Position numbers and translations under genes: made by a program. Below the pieces are notes generated by a model that made no database searches, was not told where the DNA came from, and worked only from the letters and a program-made list of their open reading frames with translations. This document shows, piece after piece, positions 3,074 through 27,404 of a stretch of DNA of 32,000 nt (positions within the stretch are counted from its first letter, which is position 1; each line of letters begins with the position of its first letter). Source of the stretch: Synechocystis sp. PCC 6803 substr. PCC-P (GTDB lineage Bacteria > Cyanobacteriota > Cyanobacteriia > Cyanobacteriales > Microcystaceae); contig NC_017039.1 of assembly GCF_000284455.1 (NCBI RefSeq), forward strand, positions 3,330,001 through 3,362,000, written 5' to 3'.

Positions 3074-4069
3074 ATGACCAGAAATGTCCAGTTTGAAATC
3101 GCACTCTCCTTCGCAGGCGAAGATAGAGAATACGTTGATCGCGTCGCCAATCTTTTGCGTGAGGCTGGTGTAACTGTTTTCTATGACATTTTTGAAGAAG
3201 CCAATCTCTGGGGCAAAAACCTCTACGACTATCTTTCTGAGATTTATCAGGATAAGGCATTATTTACAATAATGTTCATTTCGGAACACTATTCAAGAAA
3301 GATGTGGACAAACCACGAACGGCAGGCAATGCAAGCTCGGGCCTTCCAAGAGCACCAGGAGTACATTCTTCCTGCACGCTTTGATGAAACCCCTATTCCG
3401 AGCGTCCTCCCAACAGTTGGCTATATTTCACTTCGAAGCAAGACACCCGAGGAATTCGTCGAAACAATCAAGCAAAAACTTATCGCTACTGGAAGAACAG
3501 TGCCATCCGCTTCGCTCAGGCGGGACTTCTTCACATTTGAAACCATTCTACGGCGTGAGCCAATCCATGCCACAGTCACCGTTATTGACTCCTCAGAGAA
3601 GCCGGTCGCATCCGCAATCGTTGTAGCAATCGCAGACAACAACACAACTAAGCAAGCTCAAACAGATCACTCAGGCATTGCCAAACTTGACATACCAACA
3701 CGTCGGAAATACCAGTTGTTAGTCGCACATCCACAGTATCCCGGATCCATAGTTTCAACTTGGGATCCAGGATATGATATTCGAATAGTTGTGACTACAG
3801 TAGAGAATACAGGCTCAGTAATCTGCCATAGTACCTGCCACATTCCGGGTTTAGAGGGCCGCCTTAATCCAATACTCGATACCGGCTTTCGTAAGTATCT
3901 GTACGCCGACAACATCGCTATCGACGGCGGCAAACAACAACCGGCACACTTCGAGATAGACTCCCCAATTGAATTAGAAGACTCGAACGGCCTAGTTATG
4001 CTAGTGCGGGTACTTCACATACAGGGCAGAACATCGCTCATCCAATATGTACGACCCTGCAACGCCTAA
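3074..4069 (+). CDS. TIR-domain protein (N-terminal TIR_2-like domain, C-terminal beta-sandwich-like plus unknown domain)
   Basis: 331-aa ORF with an ATG start. It shows FEIALSFAGEDREYV...GVTVFYD...LWGKNL...FISEHYSRKMWTNHE, with Glu82 (nt 3317-3319) where bacterial TIR NADases carry the catalytic Glu. Residues ~165-240 (TVTVIDSSEKPVASAIVVAI...TDHSGIAKLDIP..KYQLLVAHPQYPG) resemble a carboxypeptidase-regulatory-like beta-sandwich. I do not recognise the last ~90 aa. Confidence 0.8.
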   Translation: MTRNVQFEIALSFAGEDREYVDRVANLLREAGVTVFYDIFEEANLWGKNLYDYLSEIYQDKALFTIMFISEHYSRKMWTNHERQAMQARAFQEHQEYILPARFDETPIPSVLPTVGYISLRSKTPEEFVETIKQKLIATGRTVPSASLRRDFFTFETILRREPIHATVTVIDSSEKPVASAIVVAIADNNTTKQAQTDHSGIAKLDIPTRRKYQLLVAHPQYPGSIVSTWDPGYDIRIVVTTVENTGSVICHSTCHIPGLEGRLNPILDTGFRKYLYADNIAIDGGKQQPAHFEIDSPIELEDSNGLVMLVRVLHIQGRTSLIQYVRPCNA

Positions 4070-9706: not shown

Positions 9707-9955
9707 TTAACATTCGTTTGGTATTCTGTCATATGGTTCCGGCTCAACATCGGGAACCTTAGACAAAATCGCTTCATACTTTAACCGACTACCTCTTGTA
9801 GCTCTTTCTTTAAGATAATTTTCAGTCATTAAAGCAGAGACTTTTTCGGCGATCGCACTAGATATAAATTGGTCTATGGAAATTCCATCACGAGTGGCAA
9901 GGTCAGACAAGCTTTTGTGTAATGAGTCAGGAATTTGAACTTGAACAATACTCAT
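9707..9955 (-). CDS. Ribbon-helix-helix type antitoxin (HicB/CopG-like)
   Basis: 82-aa ORF. The pattern IQVQIPDSLHKSLSDLATRDGISIDQFISSAIAEKVSALMTENYLKERA is the recurrent cyanobacterial RHH antitoxin pattern. It overlaps the upstream PIN ORF by 4 nt (9952-9955). Confidence 0.7.
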   Translation of the reverse strand: MSIVQVQIPDSLHKSLSDLATRDGISIDQFISSAIAEKVSALMTENYLKERATRGSRLKYEAILSKVPDVEPEPYDRIPNEC

Positions 9956-10386
9956 GGCAACTTTCCTATTACGCGTAAAAACTCTGAAGGCTCCAGGACA
10001 TTTAACCCAAACTGCTCTACGCCGACAAAATCACGAGCGTTATAGGTGATTATAGTCTGACAGCCCGCTTTGACGGCAAGCTCTAACACCATTTCATCTT
10101 TGGGATCACGTAGGAAAGGTCGCCAAAGAAAGAAAATTTCATGTCGTATTCCTACTGCACAGTAGAAATCAATTAATTCACCAACTTCTTCAGAACTCAA
10201 GTAAAGGTTCGGCAATTCCCGTAGTAAAACTTCTTCGTATTCGAGCAGTAAAGGGACTGACAAGTGCATGTCAAATTGCTCTGTACCAACCAGGGTAAGT
10301 AACCTAAACGAACTACCACGCCTAGACCTTAATCCAGCAATAATAGCTTGTTTGCAAAGTTGTATTTTGCCCCCTAAATCCCCCAA
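9952..10386 (-). CDS. PIN-domain (PIN_3-like) toxin, 5' end remodelled by a repeat element; possibly inactive
   Basis: The body is PIN_3-like (LSVPLLLEYEEVLLR, RDPKDEMVLELAVKAGCQTIITYNARDF). The longest ORF begins at a TTG that lies inside the MITE-like repeat (10349-10459). The segment where the first PIN acidic motif (LDTN) is expected reads QLCKQ. The first in-frame ATG is at codon 40. Confidence 0.6.
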   Translation of the reverse strand: MGDLGGKIQLCKQAIIAGLRSRRGSSFRLLTLVGTEQFDMHLSVPLLLEYEEVLLRELPNLYLSSEEVGELIDFYCAVGIRHEIFFLWRPFLRDPKDEMVLELAVKAGCQTIITYNARDFVGVEQFGLNVLEPSEFLRVIGKLP

Positions 10387-10459
10387 TACTGGGGGACTTT
10401 TAATACTTTCCCCCCAAACTTGGGGGGCTAGGGGGGCATTTAAAACAGACTCTAACGAC
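10349..10459. repeat. MITE-like palindromic dispersed repeat, copy A
   Basis: This ~111 bp element has G/C-run inverted halves (gccccctaaatcccccaa ... ttggggggctaggggggc). Its reverse complement aligns along its whole length, with one ~9 nt indel, to 27267-27379. The matching ends include ...agagyctgttt... and ...aactttScaaaca. Confidence 0.7.
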
Positions 10460-15767: not shown

Positions 15768-16028
15768 ATGATGAGAGCTTTTGAGGTAATGGCCACAGTT
15801 AAAGATTCCAAACAATTGCTCTTGGATAGTGATTTGCATTGGAATACCAGCCGAGTCAAGGTGATTATTTTGGAATCAGATGAATTGGCATCAAAAGGAA
15901 GTGAGTTTGATCCTGATGACACGCCTGTCGAAGAAATTAAGGTGAGTTTGAGGAAGGCATTAGAGGAATATAAACAAGGAAAAAGAATTCCAGTAGAAAA
16001 TATGTGGGAGGGAATTGATGTCGAATAA
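15768..16028 (+). CDS. Antitoxin of a RelE/ParE-type TA pair
   Basis: 86-aa ORF with a GAGGA-like RBS upstream. The C-terminal EEIKVSLRKALEEYKQGKRIPVENMWEGIDVE is a recurrent cyanobacterial antitoxin tail. It overlaps the toxin ORF by 14 nt. Confidence 0.65.
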   Translation: MMRAFEVMATVKDSKQLLLDSDLHWNTSRVKVIILESDELASKGSEFDPDDTPVEEIKVSLRKALEEYKQGKRIPVENMWEGIDVE

Positions 16029-16380
16029 TCTCCATTTAGTCAATATCGACTTCACCCCCGAATATAGGAGAAGTTTAAAATATTTAGCCAAGAAATATCG
16101 AAATATTCGTTCTGATGTTCAGCCCATTATTGAGGCTTTGCAAAAAGGCGTCATTAGTGGTGATCGCCTGGCAGGGTTTGGCTCTGATATTTACGTCTAT
16201 AAGCTTAGAATTAAGAATAGTAATATTCAGAAAGGGAAAAGTTCTGGCTACCGATTAATTTATTTACTCGAATCAGAAAACAGTATTTTGTTGTTAACCA
16301 TTTACAGTAAAGCTGAACAAGAAGATATTGCCGCTAGTGACATTAATTCAATTTTAGGGGAGTACTCCATAGAAGACTAA
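16015..16380 (+). CDS. RelE/ParE-superfamily toxin
   Basis: 121-aa ORF. The patterns YKLRIKNSNIQKGKSSGYRLIYLLESENSILLLTIYSKAEQEDI and F.K..KKL.. are typical of RelE/ParE (HigB-like) toxins. Confidence 0.8.
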   Translation: MMSNNLHLVNIDFTPEYRRSLKYLAKKYRNIRSDVQPIIEALQKGVISGDRLAGFGSDIYVYKLRIKNSNIQKGKSSGYRLIYLLESENSILLLTIYSKAEQEDIAASDINSILGEYSIED

Positions 16381-19352: not shown

Positions 19353-20180
19353 ATGGACAACGCGACAATCACTGCAATTGCTACAGGACTACTAGTCGTG
19401 GTCGGGATTGCCCAAATCGGCATCTTGACCTCACAAAACCGCCAAACTCGCCTGGCATTAGTGTCAGAGTACTGGAAACGCTGGCACAATTCTAAGGATT
19501 ACTGGGGACGGATAATATTTGTTGGACGAGAACTTGATGAATACTACCAAGTGCTTAATCAGAAGGAGCTAAGGGAGCTTTGCGATCTATTGAAGGAAGT
19601 GAGATCTGACGCACCGACTATTTGGGCTTTGGAAAGTATTCGTGTCGTGTCTGGAATACTGGGAGACGTTTCGATGAGAATTCTTCAAGGACAATTGGAT
19701 GTATCTGACGCATATCCAATATTTGGAACTAGTTTACTCCGTCATAGTCTCCCTCTACGAAAGCTTCTCGATTCAAGTTATCAAGATAGGCATTTTGATC
19801 CCGGAATATCTGAAAGTCATAAGGAGGTGCGGAGAGAGTTGCAGCACTGGTTAATCTACCATAATGGTTTGCGGCGCCGATGCTTGATTCTTCTCGATCT
19901 ATTGTGGGCCGAGGCAGTCAGGCTTGAAGATTTGCCGCCACAAGATATTGAGAGTGCCGCAGAAGCTAAGAAGCAGACAGGTTCAAGAAATAGATCTAGA
20001 CTTTTCCGAGAAGCGCTTCGTTTAAACGGACTGTTTCGGTTCTTCTTTGCGTGGCAACTGTCTAGGTTTCTACTCCACGCAGAATACAAATCCATTTGGA
20101 ACTGGAATGGAATCAGCAAGAAGCGTTTGAAGAATCTGGACTCGACTTGGACGAAGCATCTACTTCAAAAATATGACTAG
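19353..20180 (+). CDS. Hypothetical protein with one N-terminal transmembrane helix and a helical cytoplasmic body
   Basis: 275-aa ORF with an ATG start. The N-terminus ITAIATGLLVVVGIAQIGILT is hydrophobic. The rest is charged and helical with no motif I can assign. Codon choice (cga, aga, tca, cta) differs from neighbouring core genes. Confidence 0.55.
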   Translation: MDNATITAIATGLLVVVGIAQIGILTSQNRQTRLALVSEYWKRWHNSKDYWGRIIFVGRELDEYYQVLNQKELRELCDLLKEVRSDAPTIWALESIRVVSGILGDVSMRILQGQLDVSDAYPIFGTSLLRHSLPLRKLLDSSYQDRHFDPGISESHKEVRRELQHWLIYHNGLRRRCLILLDLLWAEAVRLEDLPPQDIESAAEAKKQTGSRNRSRLFREALRLNGLFRFFFAWQLSRFLLHAEYKSIWNWNGISKKRLKNLDSTWTKHLLQKYD

Positions 20181-20218
20181 CTCAAGCGCAAACCAAACTT
20201 AAATGCTGAAAGGTTGGA

Positions 20219-20362
20219 ATGAATTATTCAACGATTAAAATTTTAGATACCTTACTCATTCAAAAAATCATTATTACTGACGAAGCGCTCAGTGTTAATT
20301 TGTTTGATAGGCGATCTATTTCTGTCCCTTTAGTCCGATATCTACGAGCATTGGTTAGGTGA
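20219..20362 (+). pseudogene. Decayed DUF2442-like small ORF (47 codons, premature TGA)
   Basis: The ORF reads MNYSTIKILDTLLIQKIIITDEALSVNLFDRRSISVPLVRYLRALVR*. The segment L.V.L.DGR.I.VPL.WYPRL is the core of cyanobacterial DUF2442 proteins. After the TGA the same frame continues SPTWSIMLAINVWW..., weakly like the C-terminal half (NW.L.G.G.GIHW). Confidence 0.3.
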
Positions 20363-20508
20363 TCGCCAACGTGGTCTATAATGTTAGCAATAAATGTTTG
20401 GTGGTTTACAGTGAATAAACCTATCCTAAGGAGTGATTTTTCTACCAAAGATAGAAGATTTAACTCACAAATCATCTTCTTAAGATTTTTAATTGGGGAT
20501 ATAAGTCA

Positions 20509-21030
20509 ATGTCTAAAAAACAATATCTAAAGCGGTTTGAAGATTTTCTATCAGAACAAGAATCTGAAAATAATGAATCCTTAGCCATTGACTATGAGGA
20601 AGATAAACAAAAATGGCTTGCTAAAATTGATGAATTTTATGAGCTTGTTCAAGAATATATTCATGGCTATCTAGAACAAGGCAAAATAGGTGAAGAATGG
20701 AAAACACTTCAGCTACAAGAAGATCACTTTGGAGAATATGAAGTTAAACAATTAATATTAAAAATAGGAAAAAAAAGACTAATTTTTAAGCCAGTTGGTC
20801 GATTTATTGTTGGTTGTCAAGGCCGTATTGATTTAATTTCTGATCTGGGTAGTGTTCGGTTTTTATTGGTTCCGAAAGATTTTGATGAACCAAGCACTTT
20901 CTTTCTGGGACACTTTACGCCCCAAACTCAATGGCTATGGAAAATTGCCTCTCGCCCTCCTAAAGTAAGTTATTTAGAAATTACGGAGGAAACTTTTTTT
21001 CAAGCTTTAATGGAAGTCGTCAATGCTTAA
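20509..21030 (+). CDS. Hypothetical protein, first gene of an AT-rich overlapping gene pair
   Basis: 173-aa ORF with an ATG start. The N-terminal ~60 aa are acidic and helical, and the C-terminal half looks beta-rich (KRLIFKPVGRFIVGCQGRIDLISDLGSVRFLLVP). No family was recognised. Its stop overlaps the next start (ATGCTTAA, 21023-21030). Confidence 0.6.
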   Translation: MSKKQYLKRFEDFLSEQESENNESLAIDYEEDKQKWLAKIDEFYELVQEYIHGYLEQGKIGEEWKTLQLQEDHFGEYEVKQLILKIGKKRLIFKPVGRFIVGCQGRIDLISDLGSVRFLLVPKDFDEPSTFFLGHFTPQTQWLWKIASRPPKVSYLEITEETFFQALMEVVNA

Positions 21031-21559
21031 AAAAGTATCGTTTTCTAGTGAGAACTTGTCTCTGTTAAATATTGCTGATTATTATGGTGATAGTGAAAAA
21101 GCATTAAGACTTTTCTTTAGCCCCAAAAATCCTGCATATACTTTGAGGTTTAATGGTTATACCAGAAATGAAGTTGAAGGAGAATTAAAATTAAGATTAC
21201 AGGAATTAGATAAAGCAGTTTCGCTTTCGATTTTATCTGCCTTAGAAGCATTACTTCGTGTTGATTATTTGACACGATGTTACAAGAAAAAAAAGGATCC
21301 TTTGTCTAGAAAAATGCGAAATATTTACAAAAGCAAAGGTGTTCGTGCTTCTTTAGAAAGAGATATTCTAAGATTATGGAAAGAAATTTGTCCAGAATAT
21401 AAAAGTTTTATTTCAGAAGTAATAACTGCTTTTGATTATCGAAATTGGTTGGCCCATGGCCGTTACTGGGAACCTAAATTAGGTAGAAATTTTGATTATA
21501 GTTCTTTGTACGATTTAGCAGAATCTATTGAGCAACTATTGATATCTTCTCGCACCTAA
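21023..21559 (+). CDS. Hypothetical small helical protein with HEPN-type R-N-x3-H motif (putative RNase toxin)
   Basis: 178-aa ORF. FDYRNWLAHGRYW contains R140-N-W-L-A-H145 (nt 21440-21457), which matches the R[NQ]xxxH form of the HEPN Rx4-6H motif. It is preceded by helical segments (SILSALEALLRVDYLTR). The gene is translationally coupled to the upstream gene. Confidence 0.55.
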   Translation: MLKKVSFSSENLSLLNIADYYGDSEKALRLFFSPKNPAYTLRFNGYTRNEVEGELKLRLQELDKAVSLSILSALEALLRVDYLTRCYKKKKDPLSRKMRNIYKSKGVRASLERDILRLWKEICPEYKSFISEVITAFDYRNWLAHGRYWEPKLGRNFDYSSLYDLAESIEQLLISSRT

Positions 21560-21700
21560 AGGCAAGTAGTAATTAGATTTTATTTGTCCGTTATTGAGTA
21601 AATAATTCCGGAACAACAGTTACCGATCGCCAGTTGCATTAGCCAAAGCAAGCGGGAACTTTCATAATGAGACAAAGGCAATCTTCACCGCAGGGACATT

Positions 21701-22018
21701 ATGGGCTTACTCGTCAACGGCATTTGGCAAGATCAGTGGTACGACACCAAAAGTACCGGAGGGCAGTTTGTGCGGCAAGATTCCCAATTTTGCCATTGGA
21801 TTACCCCTGATGGATCAACGGGACCTATCGGTAAAGTTGGATTCAAAGCGGAAGCATGACGATATCAACTACACGTTTCTTTGCCCTCTCCGCGAGCATA
21901 CCGCACCCTGATTTTTCGTAAACTTAAAGACTTAGAAAGAGAAGGGATGATTGTCAGAATCGATGCCCTCAATGGGGGAAGAAAAGATTTCCTCCCCTTA
22001 TTTGAGCGGAACGATTAA
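21701..22018 (+). pseudogene. Truncated, inactivated YqjG/ECM4-type glutathionyl-hydroquinone reductase (Xi-class GST) gene fragment
   Basis: MGLLVNGIWQDQWYDTKSTGGQFVRQDSQFCHWITPDGSTGPIGKVGFKAEA*RYQLHVSLPSPRAYRTLIFRKLKDLE parallels E. coli YqjG MGQLIDGVWHDTWYDTKSTGGKFQRSASAFRNWLTADG...[32 protein letters not shown]. There is an in-frame TGA at 21857-21859. The catalytic CPWA is replaced by SPRA. Similarity ends after ~85 codons, and the frame stops at 22016-22018, directly against the glsF stop. Confidence 0.75.
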
Positions 22019-27266: not shown

Positions 27267-27379
27267 GCTCTAAGAGCCTGTTTAACAAGCCCCCCTGGCC
27301 CCCAAATTTGGGGTGAAGCTGGGTGAAAGTACCCCATTATTGGGGGATTTAGGGGGCGGAATAAAACTTTCCAAACACG
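27267..27379. repeat. MITE-like palindromic dispersed repeat, copy B
   Basis: gctctaagagcctgtttaacaagcccccctggcccccaaatttgggg...ccccattattgggggatttagggggcggaataaaactttccaaacacg matches the reverse complement of copy A (10349-10459). It lies 25 nt upstream of the ddh start. Confidence 0.7.
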
Positions 27380-27404
27380 TTCTAAACTACTTCCCATAAT
27401 CGTC

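Follow-up and report, generated by a model that had tools for sequence, protein, structure and literature searches.

A mobile gene pair of Synechocystis sp. PCC 6803 encoding a HEPN-like protein and an obligate partner, a candidate toxin-antitoxin module

Results

The slr0667-slr0668 locus

Two small overlapping genes, slr0667 and slr0668, were studied in a 32,000-nucleotide stretch of the genome of Synechocystis sp. PCC 6803 substr. PCC-P (contig NC_017039.1, positions 3,330,001 to 3,362,000; hereafter the window). A first-pass annotation made from the letters of this DNA had described two open reading frames (ORFs) of 173 and 178 amino acids with an 8-nt overlap, and we recovered both, together with the junction ATGCTTAA, at the coordinates that it had claimed (Table 1). 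By exact sequence match, ORF1 is slr0667 and ORF2 is slr0668, both recorded as 'unknown protein'; in the same genome, acnB is slr0665 and a 275-amino-acid ORF is slr0666. Both are real genes and not chance ORFs, since hundreds of homologues occur across bacterial phyla, exact records exist and both genes are transcribed.

The pair had also been singled out as AT-rich compared with acnB, and this proved correct. The GC content of 20509-21559 is 0.324, against 0.523 for acnB, 0.500 for glsF and 0.481 for the whole window, so that the two genes form the lowest-GC stretch of 1,051 nt in the window, about 3.4 standard deviations under the mean. The AT-rich region that precedes them is conserved (96%) only with the closest relative, locus L007, and lies outside the unit common to other genera, in which the homology begins at 20508-20509. 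A promoter and terminator scan of the locus gave nothing promoter-like above the shuffled expectation.

Table 1. Coordinates of the features of the slr0667-slr0668 locus, numbered from the first letter of the window.
Feature	Position	Strand	Description
slr0667 (ORF1)	20509..21030	+	173 aa, ATG start; partner, putative neutraliser (antitoxin)
slr0668 (ORF2)	21023..21559	+	178 aa, ATG start; HEPN-like putative RNase toxin/effector
Start/stop overlap ATGCTTAA, 8 nt	21023..21030	+	translational-coupling junction; ORF1 stop TAA at 21028-21030
Codons of R140-N-W-L-A-H145, candidate catalytic motif Rx4H	21440..21457	+	R140 at 21440-21442, H145 at 21455-21457
Codon of E75, candidate helix-2 active-site residue	21245..21247	+	near-invariant acidic residue within long helix 48-87
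AT-rich 5' region, GC 0.34	20188..20508	+	presumed promoter and 5' untranslated region of the pair

The two genes form an obligate and co-evolving pair

We fetched 80 loci by means of the HEPN-like gene. A full partner gene was located directly upstream on the same strand in 78 of them; of the other two, one had a C-terminal fragment of the partner at the contig edge and one was a contig starting inside the HEPN-like gene. The pairing seen in Synechocystis thus extends to other genomes and was recovered in every locus where it could be tested. The junction is conserved as well: in 73 of 77 loci from different phyla, an in-frame ATG or GTG stands exactly 8 nt before the end of the partner stop codon (RTGNNTRR), and a pair carried by Klebsiella plasmids has the same 8-nt overlap. 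We did not find a conserved third gene, the most widespread neighbour family being present in only 7 of the 80 loci, all from one clade.

The distance matrices of the two proteins are correlated (r=0.81, Mantel p=0.001). The partner evolves faster, with a mean identity of 0.39 against 0.46 for the HEPN-like protein, and it is the less conserved of the two in 94% of divergent comparisons. An acidic partner (median pI 5.5) goes with a more basic HEPN-like protein (median pI 7.9) in 67 of 75 pairs; for slr0667 and slr0668 themselves, the values are pI 5.0 with a net charge of -8 and pI 9.4 with a net charge of +8, respectively. The pair therefore displays a generic trait of type II toxin-antitoxin (TA) systems: two small co-directional overlapping genes, co-inherited and located on mobile DNA.

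slr0668 and its likeness to HEPN proteins

An exhaustive profile search covering 1.84 billion representatives retrieved 1,248 clusters (50% identity) related to slr0668 at E<=1e-3, including 363 at E<=1e-30. The best 150 of these 1,248 clusters, all with E<1e-43, are nearly all standalone proteins of about 175-185 amino acids. In a motif-seeded scan, the family was present in at least 348 of 185,579 species-representative genomes, with a patchy distribution over many phyla, and its hits include archaeal metagenome-assembled genomes (MAGs).

The R-N-x3-H motif announced in the first-pass annotation is found in slr0668 as FDYRNWLAHGRYW, with R140 and H145, and both residues turned out to be conserved among homologues. 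R140 is kept in 229/229 full-length members and H145 in 228/229, the lone exception being a truncated protein. Position 75 is E in 227 members and D in the two others, D81 and R85 are each present in 225, and residue 141 is always polar (H in 177, N in 42, D in 10). The Rx4H motif is likewise invariant in an alignment of 32 sequences of the family.

The AlphaFold2 model of slr0668 (predicted local distance difference test, pLDDT, 92.3) is all-helical, with helices at 14-31, 48-87, 93-108, 111-122, 124-144 and 159-177. The R140-H145 motif is placed at the C-terminal end of the penultimate helix (124-144), followed by a loop and the last helix (159-177); E75 lies in the long second helix (48-87), and a helical hairpin (93-122) is inserted before helix 124-144. 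The published description of HEPN domains puts their motif at this same place and mentions a conserved acidic residue in helix 2 and a helical hairpin often inserted between H2 and H3. The model agrees with this anatomy for the position of the motif, the acidic residue of helix 2 and the H2-H3 insert.

In a Foldseek search of the PDB with this model, the HEPN toxin 7ae8 ranked first, HEPN toxins occupied ranks 1, 2, 4 and 5, and 12 of the top 50 hits corresponded to seven HEPN or HEPN-minimal nucleotidyltransferase (MNT) entries (7ae8, 5yep, 4nqf, 1wwp, 3jrt, 7bxo and 6m6u). The HEPN fold proposed in the first-pass annotation is supported by the all-alpha model and by the motif at the end of the penultimate helix; the HEPN hits, although ranked highest, had E>=0.6 and were not significant. 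The same fold search against BFVD (viral structures) gave nothing.

Sequence libraries were searched in parallel. Neither slr0668 nor slr0667 matched anything at E<=0.1 beyond noise in Pfam, NCBIfam (June 2026), PADLOC-DB v2 or PHROGs, and the consensus sequences of the families had no match in PADLOC except Csa3 at E=0.02, which we took as noise. Individual members of the slr0668 family gave sub-threshold Pfam hits to HEPN_RiboL-PSP or HEPN_MAE_28990, first in 1 of 32 and then in 15 of 146 (HEPN_RiboL-PSP in 12, best E 4e-4; HEPN_MAE_28990 in three, best E 1e-4; all under the Pfam thresholds). These two families, which both belong to the HEPN clan, were the two most recurrent Pfam hits among the 146 representatives. 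The HEPN nature of the protein, as first proposed, is therefore retained for the motif and the predicted topology, while for membership in a named family there are only sub-threshold Pfam hits. Taken together, slr0668 is very probably a divergent domain of the HEPN superfamily, which we do not assign to a named HEPN family.

slr0667, the upstream partner

A word-index search with slr0667 recovered cyanobacterial relatives only. The genes located 5' of distant slr0668 relatives nevertheless encode slr0667 homologues, with 31-32% identity and E about 1e-35 in Neorhizobium and Geobacillus, and 24% identity (E=5e-22) in the case of the Klebsiella plasmids; a profile search recovered 108 relatives. 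Five residues are invariant in this family (E71, G75, G97, R106 and W144), two are nearly so (D108 and K145), and a GxKGRVD loop is conserved.

The AlphaFold2 model of slr0667 (pLDDT 90.1) begins with two long helices that form a hairpin, continues with a beta domain of seven strands and ends with a further helix. A seven-stranded domain closed by such a terminal helix is a pleckstrin homology (PH)-like arrangement. In a Foldseek search of the PDB, PH domains came out on top, together with nsp9 and barrels, all of these hits being weak (E>=0.5, TM score <=0.33). A profile search of the family against PDB sequences returned only noise. Neither an MNT nor any other Pfam family was found in slr0667 and 43 relatives. 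The statement of the first-pass annotation that the upstream protein is no MNT, and hence a non-canonical partner, is borne out by this result and by the different predicted fold.

Mobility and genomic context

Between cyanobacterial genera, the nucleotide homology (74-86%) spans just the two ORFs, from the first start codon to the second stop codon or just past it. In 69 of 72 loci the GC content of the cassette is below that of its flanks (mean difference -8.8 points, p=2e-13). We found the pair on 18 Klebsiella or Raoultella plasmids. Some of them are ColE1-type plasmids of only 3.7-4.7 kb, whose other annotated genes encode Rop, a helix-turn-helix (HTH) protein and two small hypothetical proteins; the cassette is the main cargo of such small Klebsiella plasmids, including those of 4.6 kb. 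Complete genomes of E. coli contained no DNA match to the Klebsiella cassette. The slr0668 family was absent from GenBank phages and present in 10 contigs only of IMG/VR.

The neighbourhoods are diverse. In Neorhizobium the pair has integrases, PIN-type TA pairs and a resolvase as neighbours, and the locus L006 is rich in mobile elements. In Planktothrix it adjoins an MmeI-type restriction-modification (RM) enzyme, with GmrSD, HigBA, Phd, SocA and a reverse transcriptase close by, forming a defence island. In Planktothrix agardhii (L009 and L010 5082-6804) we also observed genes for actin (PF00022) and profilin (PF00235) about 1-3 kb 5' of the cassette, that is, eukaryote-type cytoskeletal genes in a cyanobacterial variable region, within a defence/TA island.

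Over the 80 loci, the immediate (+/-1) neighbours are mostly housekeeping genes, defence genes being occasional, and no enrichment in defence islands was seen at these positions. The first-pass annotation had named the pair a candidate toxin/abortive infection (Abi) system; support for the Abi half is limited to single examples, some loci such as Planktothrix being defence islands, and since the immediate neighbours are mostly housekeeping genes, the context does not in general speak for a defence role. The cassette behaves as a solitary mobile TA-type module that sometimes lands in defence islands.

Asymmetric decay of the two genes

The fate of each gene beside an intact copy of the other was followed in two arms: an arm anchored on the HEPN-like gene, with species genomes in which this gene is intact (75 dereplicated testable lineages), and an arm anchored on the partner, with metagenome contigs in which the partner is intact (56 dereplicated lineages with enough downstream sequence, scanned with a 12-sequence alignment). 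The partner was intact beside an intact HEPN-like gene in 74 of 75 lineages, whereas in 13 of 56 lineages with an intact partner the HEPN-like gene was missing, truncated or frameshifted (13/56 versus 1/75, Fisher's exact p=6e-5). In the locus L032, the HEPN-like gene has an in-frame stop and the partner is intact. Identical lesions were recovered in independent samples (L102/L103, L140/L159 and L162/L170), so that these recurrent lesions are alleles and not sequencing errors. This asymmetry is the pattern that would be expected if the HEPN-like protein were harmful without its partner.

An apparently split partner in L087 was discarded as a lesion because it corresponds to a double match of the hidden Markov model in the same frame. 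The one real lesion of the partner is the frameshift of L089 (7465-8005, a MAG of Bryobacterales), the sole locus in which a frameshifted partner accompanies an intact HEPN-like gene. This frameshift may reflect an error of assembly or a lesion that is tolerated, or else speak against strict toxicity.

Expression and previous literature

slr0668, annotated as 'Unknown protein' in the transcription unit TU3532, is transiently induced on entry into dark microoxic conditions (PMC11368403). In the supplementary table of that study, which reads as an edgeR output (log fold change, log counts per million, F, P and false discovery rate), the log counts per million are 7.67 for slr0667 and 4.32 for slr0668, corresponding to about 10-fold more upstream mRNA. 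This ratio of about 10:1 is observed despite the overlap of the two ORFs and suggests that the operon transcript is attenuated, processed or unequally stable along its length; our scan found no terminator-like site between or inside the two genes. Since acnB-slr0666 has been described in the literature as a dicistron, slr0667 and slr0668 form a separate transcription unit.

The pair is absent from a dedicated TA census of Synechocystis 6803 (69 pairs and more), and the 2013 survey of the HEPN superfamily contains no family with such a partner. Literature searches by gene-product accession, and for HEPN together with pleckstrin homology, returned no paper.

Other features of the window

Downstream of the cassette, remnants of a YqjG/omega-type glutathione S-transferase (GST) are scattered over three reading frames at 21701-22018 (+) and end where the 3' end of glsF starts (22019). 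The closest relative, L007, with 96% nucleotide identity over 20188-21940, has an intact GST of 319 amino acids after the cassette, which points to rearrangement or gene decay beside the cassette in PCC 6803. On the other side, slr0666 (19353-20180, +) encodes 275 amino acids with a hydrophobic N-terminus, has no family match and is alone in its 90%-identity cluster. As the homology with L007 begins only at 20188, slr0666 could represent an independent insertion, specific to the strain, between acnB and the cassette.

A RelE-family toxin gene (PF06296, E=5e-6) lies at 16015-16380 (+) in a low-GC patch just 5' of acnB and corresponds to slr0664 of the published relNEs (ssr1114/slr0664) TA system. 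With slr0664 upstream and the slr0667-slr0668 cassette downstream, modules of TA type are thus present on both sides of acnB. Another low-GC patch (GC about 0.42) at 9952-10386 (-) encodes a probable VapC-type toxin with a PIN_3 domain (E=2e-14). At 3074-4069 (+), a protein of 331 amino acids combines an N-terminal TIR_2 domain (E=1e-17) with a CarboxypepD_reg-like domain and is possibly a TIR-based defence or signalling protein. Finally, a short repeat with the core GCCCCCTAAATCCCCCAATACTGGGGGACTTTT, in which a G/C hairpin precedes a T run, occurs in opposite orientations at 10347-10425 (+) and 27327-27388 (-); it recurs with about 84% identity in an unrelated cyanobacterial contig (L013, 14136-14222) and has no match in Rfam. 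This repeat could be terminator-like or could resemble a miniature inverted-repeat transposable element.

Discussion

A candidate toxin and its neutraliser

None of the refuting outcomes named in the first-pass annotation occurred in the in silico checks, and its reading is supported at the level of sequence analysis. We consider it moderately probable that slr0667-slr0668 is a self-contained, mobile and translationally coupled TA-like module, composed of a divergent HEPN RNase toxin and its cognate protein neutraliser. In such a module, slr0668 would most likely be a metal-independent endoribonuclease with R140, H145 and E75 as its putative active site, and a dimer would probably join two Rx4H motifs, by analogy with other HEPN RNases. 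slr0667, translated from the same mRNA just upstream and held in a fixed register by the 8-nt overlap, would most likely act like a type II antitoxin by binding and silencing the RNase. The loss, degradation or displacement of slr0667, through plasmid loss, stress or perhaps phage infection, would then lead to RNA cleavage and growth arrest. The relation between toxin and neutraliser is supported indirectly by the asymmetric decay, by the opposite charges (-8/+8) and by the mRNA ratio of about 10:1.

Several observations weigh against this explanation. On the side of slr0668, the consensus of the family has no match in the HEPN clan of Pfam and its profile retrieved only noise from PDB sequences; the best Foldseek hit (E=0.63, probability 0.51, TM score 0.35-0.46) is not significant, and the packing of the four helices is read off the secondary-structure string. 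On the side of slr0667, the protein is unlike a classical antitoxin in being toxin-sized and well folded (pLDDT 90), no DNA-binding domain (HTH, ribbon-helix-helix or AbrB) appeared in the family scans or in the model, and the invariant polar residues E71 and R106, with D108 and K145, could indicate that slr0667 acts as an enzyme or binds a ligand instead of being a passive inhibitor. To these we add the housekeeping neighbourhoods described above and the fact that the two arms of the decay comparison were drawn from different collections, each selected for an intact anchor.

Alternative explanations

The size, the stable fold and the invariant polar residues of slr0667 leave room for a role as sensor or regulator, or as an enzyme. 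The first of these roles leads to a two-component Abi or phage-sensing system, which we regard as rather unlikely. Here slr0667 would be a stable sensor whose PH-like domain or hairpin recognises a phage product or a small ligand and frees or activates the RNase; both proteins would be needed and slr0667 would be no labile antidote, so that the effector would act as in the TA-like module while the role of the partner would differ. A partner that is large, well folded, nearly as conserved as the effector and endowed with invariant polar residues is what such a system would have, many HEPN proteins are Abi effectors according to the 2013 survey, and the two-gene system DS-28, with a small HEPN protein, has been validated as anti-phage in E. 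coli. The Planktothrix copies near an MmeI-type RM enzyme, GmrSD, a reverse transcriptase and TA genes agree with this idea, and carriage on small plasmids would also fit a defence cargo. However, defence genes are only occasional among the mostly housekeeping neighbours of the 80 loci, no PADLOC model matches either protein, and viral sequences seldom carry the family, with 10 loci in viral contigs and none in GenBank phages. Furthermore, a pure sensor need not outlast its effector, yet the partner was kept after decay of the HEPN-like gene in 13 of 56 lineages.

As a tentative suggestion, to which we give a fairly low probability, slr0667-type proteins might represent a new class of HEPN regulators, with a hairpin, a PH-like domain and an invariant polar site, that control the RNase in response to a phage component or a small molecule, within a widespread Abi system so far overlooked. 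If this were true, the Abi mechanism would be distinct both from AMPylation by an MNT and from control by a simple labile antitoxin, and it would concern at least 348 species, with hits in archaeal MAGs, as well as a model cyanobacterium and clinical Klebsiella plasmids.

The enzymatic role corresponds to a system resembling type VII, in which slr0667 would inactivate the HEPN protein by modification with a fold and a chemistry unlike those of MntA. HepT/MntA, in which MntA AMPylates HepT, provides the precedent; slr0667 occupies the position of the MNT in HEPN-MNT pairs, upstream and overlapping, and the invariant E71 and R106, the near-invariant D108 and K145 and the conserved GxKGRVD loop speak for it. 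We nevertheless find this quite improbable, because neither a nucleotidyltransferase nor another enzyme family was detected, the fold search yielded only weak hits to PH domains and beta barrels, and there is no recognisable nucleotide-binding motif.

Equally hard to favour is a non-toxic mobile complex, for example a regulator binding RNA or nucleotides, in which the Rx4H-like motif would serve for binding and not for cleavage. Several HEPN families are indeed non-catalytic (Table 1 of the 2013 survey), slr0668 has no significant family-level match, and many chromosomal copies are found among housekeeping genes. Against this, the invariance of R, H and E over about 230 divergent members is typical of catalytic families, only scattered genomes have the family (348 of 185,579 species genomes, a lower bound), and the AT skew, the carriage on small plasmids and the asymmetric decay point to a selfish or conflict module. 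Least probable of all is a reversal of roles, with slr0667 as the toxin and slr0668 as the antidote or immunity protein: the toxin gene does come first in some TA families and slr0667 has invariant polar residues, but it is the HEPN-like gene that decays beside an intact partner and rarely the opposite, the partner is acidic and faster evolving, as antitoxins are, and its mRNA exceeds that of slr0668. Both reversed roles and a non-toxic function are unlikely in view of the asymmetric decay, the difference in evolutionary rate, the charges and the mRNA levels.

Significance

HEPN RNases are among the commonest effectors of prokaryotic conflicts (Cas13, Csm6, HepT, RnlA and Abi proteins), and the way in which each of them is restrained is interesting biology. 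The slr0668 family, which exceeds 1,200 clusters at 50% identity, is missing from Pfam, NCBIfam, PADLOC, PHROGs, the 2013 HEPN survey and the TA census of its host. New HEPN families are unsurprising per se; what is notable here is the size of the family and its obligate partner of an unrecognised type, both of which have escaped annotation although a model organism and clinical plasmids carry them. Two settings are tractable, Synechocystis 6803 and the 4.6-kb Klebsiella plasmids in which the cassette is almost the sole cargo, and the TA-like module is therefore directly testable. Its confirmation would provide a new HEPN family of TA or defence systems, a new antitoxin or regulator fold, and an annotation for thousands of pairs of 'hypothetical proteins'.

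Comparison with known systems

The type VII system HepT-MntA (Shewanella SO_3166/SO_3165; PDB 5yep, 7ae8 and 6m6u) likewise contains a small standalone HEPN-type protein with an Rx4-6H motif, encoded with an overlapping upstream partner gene in a mobile two-gene unit, and its members are the best-ranked structural neighbours of slr0668. However, MntA is a minimal nucleotidyltransferase (GSx10DxD) that AMPylates the toxin, whereas slr0667 is no nucleotidyltransferase and has a different predicted fold; slr0668 also exceeds the matched HepT chains (128-152 residues) by about 45 residues, with a hairpin inserted before helix 3. We considered slr0668 as a HepT-like/DUF86 protein (PF01934) and rejected this assignment, no such Pfam match being present in slr0668 or in the scanned members. 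An hhalign comparison of the slr0668 family with a bona fide HepT from L013 gave a probability of 0.2, a weak test with a single-sequence template. In the absence of both an MNT partner and a PF01934 match, the pair does not belong to the HepT/MntA class.

The RiboL-PSP-HEPN (PF18735) and MAE_28990/MAE_18760 HEPN (PF18737) families also have an R[N/H/D]xxxH motif and are named from, or common in, cyanobacteria. They occur fused to an endoRNase L-PSP domain or in operons with ParB, a methylase or ParA/Soj, and none of these contexts was found at the loci of the slr0668 family.

RnlA is a multi-domain protein of about 350 amino acids, and its antitoxin gene lies downstream. In slr0667-slr0668, by comparison, both proteins have about 175 amino acids and the partner is upstream, and no sequence relationship with RnlA-RnlB was detected. 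The RNase LS systems RnlA-RnlB and LsoA-LsoB resemble the module that we favour in that a HEPN RNase is neutralised by direct binding of a dedicated, non-enzymatic protein antitoxin of unrelated fold, with anti-phage and plasmid roles.

DS-28, identified in E. coli with DefensePredictor, is a validated anti-phage system of two genes that associates a HEPN nuclease of 163 amino acids with an RNxxxH motif (WP_000528930.1) and a hypothetical protein (WP_000494510.1). It differs in that the HEPN gene comes first and the partner, of 252 amino acids, is unrelated to slr0667; its HEPN protein is already named HEPN nuclease by NCBI, whereas slr0668 has no NCBIfam match. With hhalign, only the 8 residues of the motif could be aligned between the slr0668 family and the DS-28 HEPN protein, and the partners were unrelated, the templates being again single sequences and the test weak. 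Known defence systems of PADLOC-DB v2, including PD-T4-2 with its RiboL-PSP-HEPN protein, were rejected as well, since neither protein matches them. By comparison with these systems, we class slr0667-slr0668 as a new HEPN-like family with an unprecedented partner.

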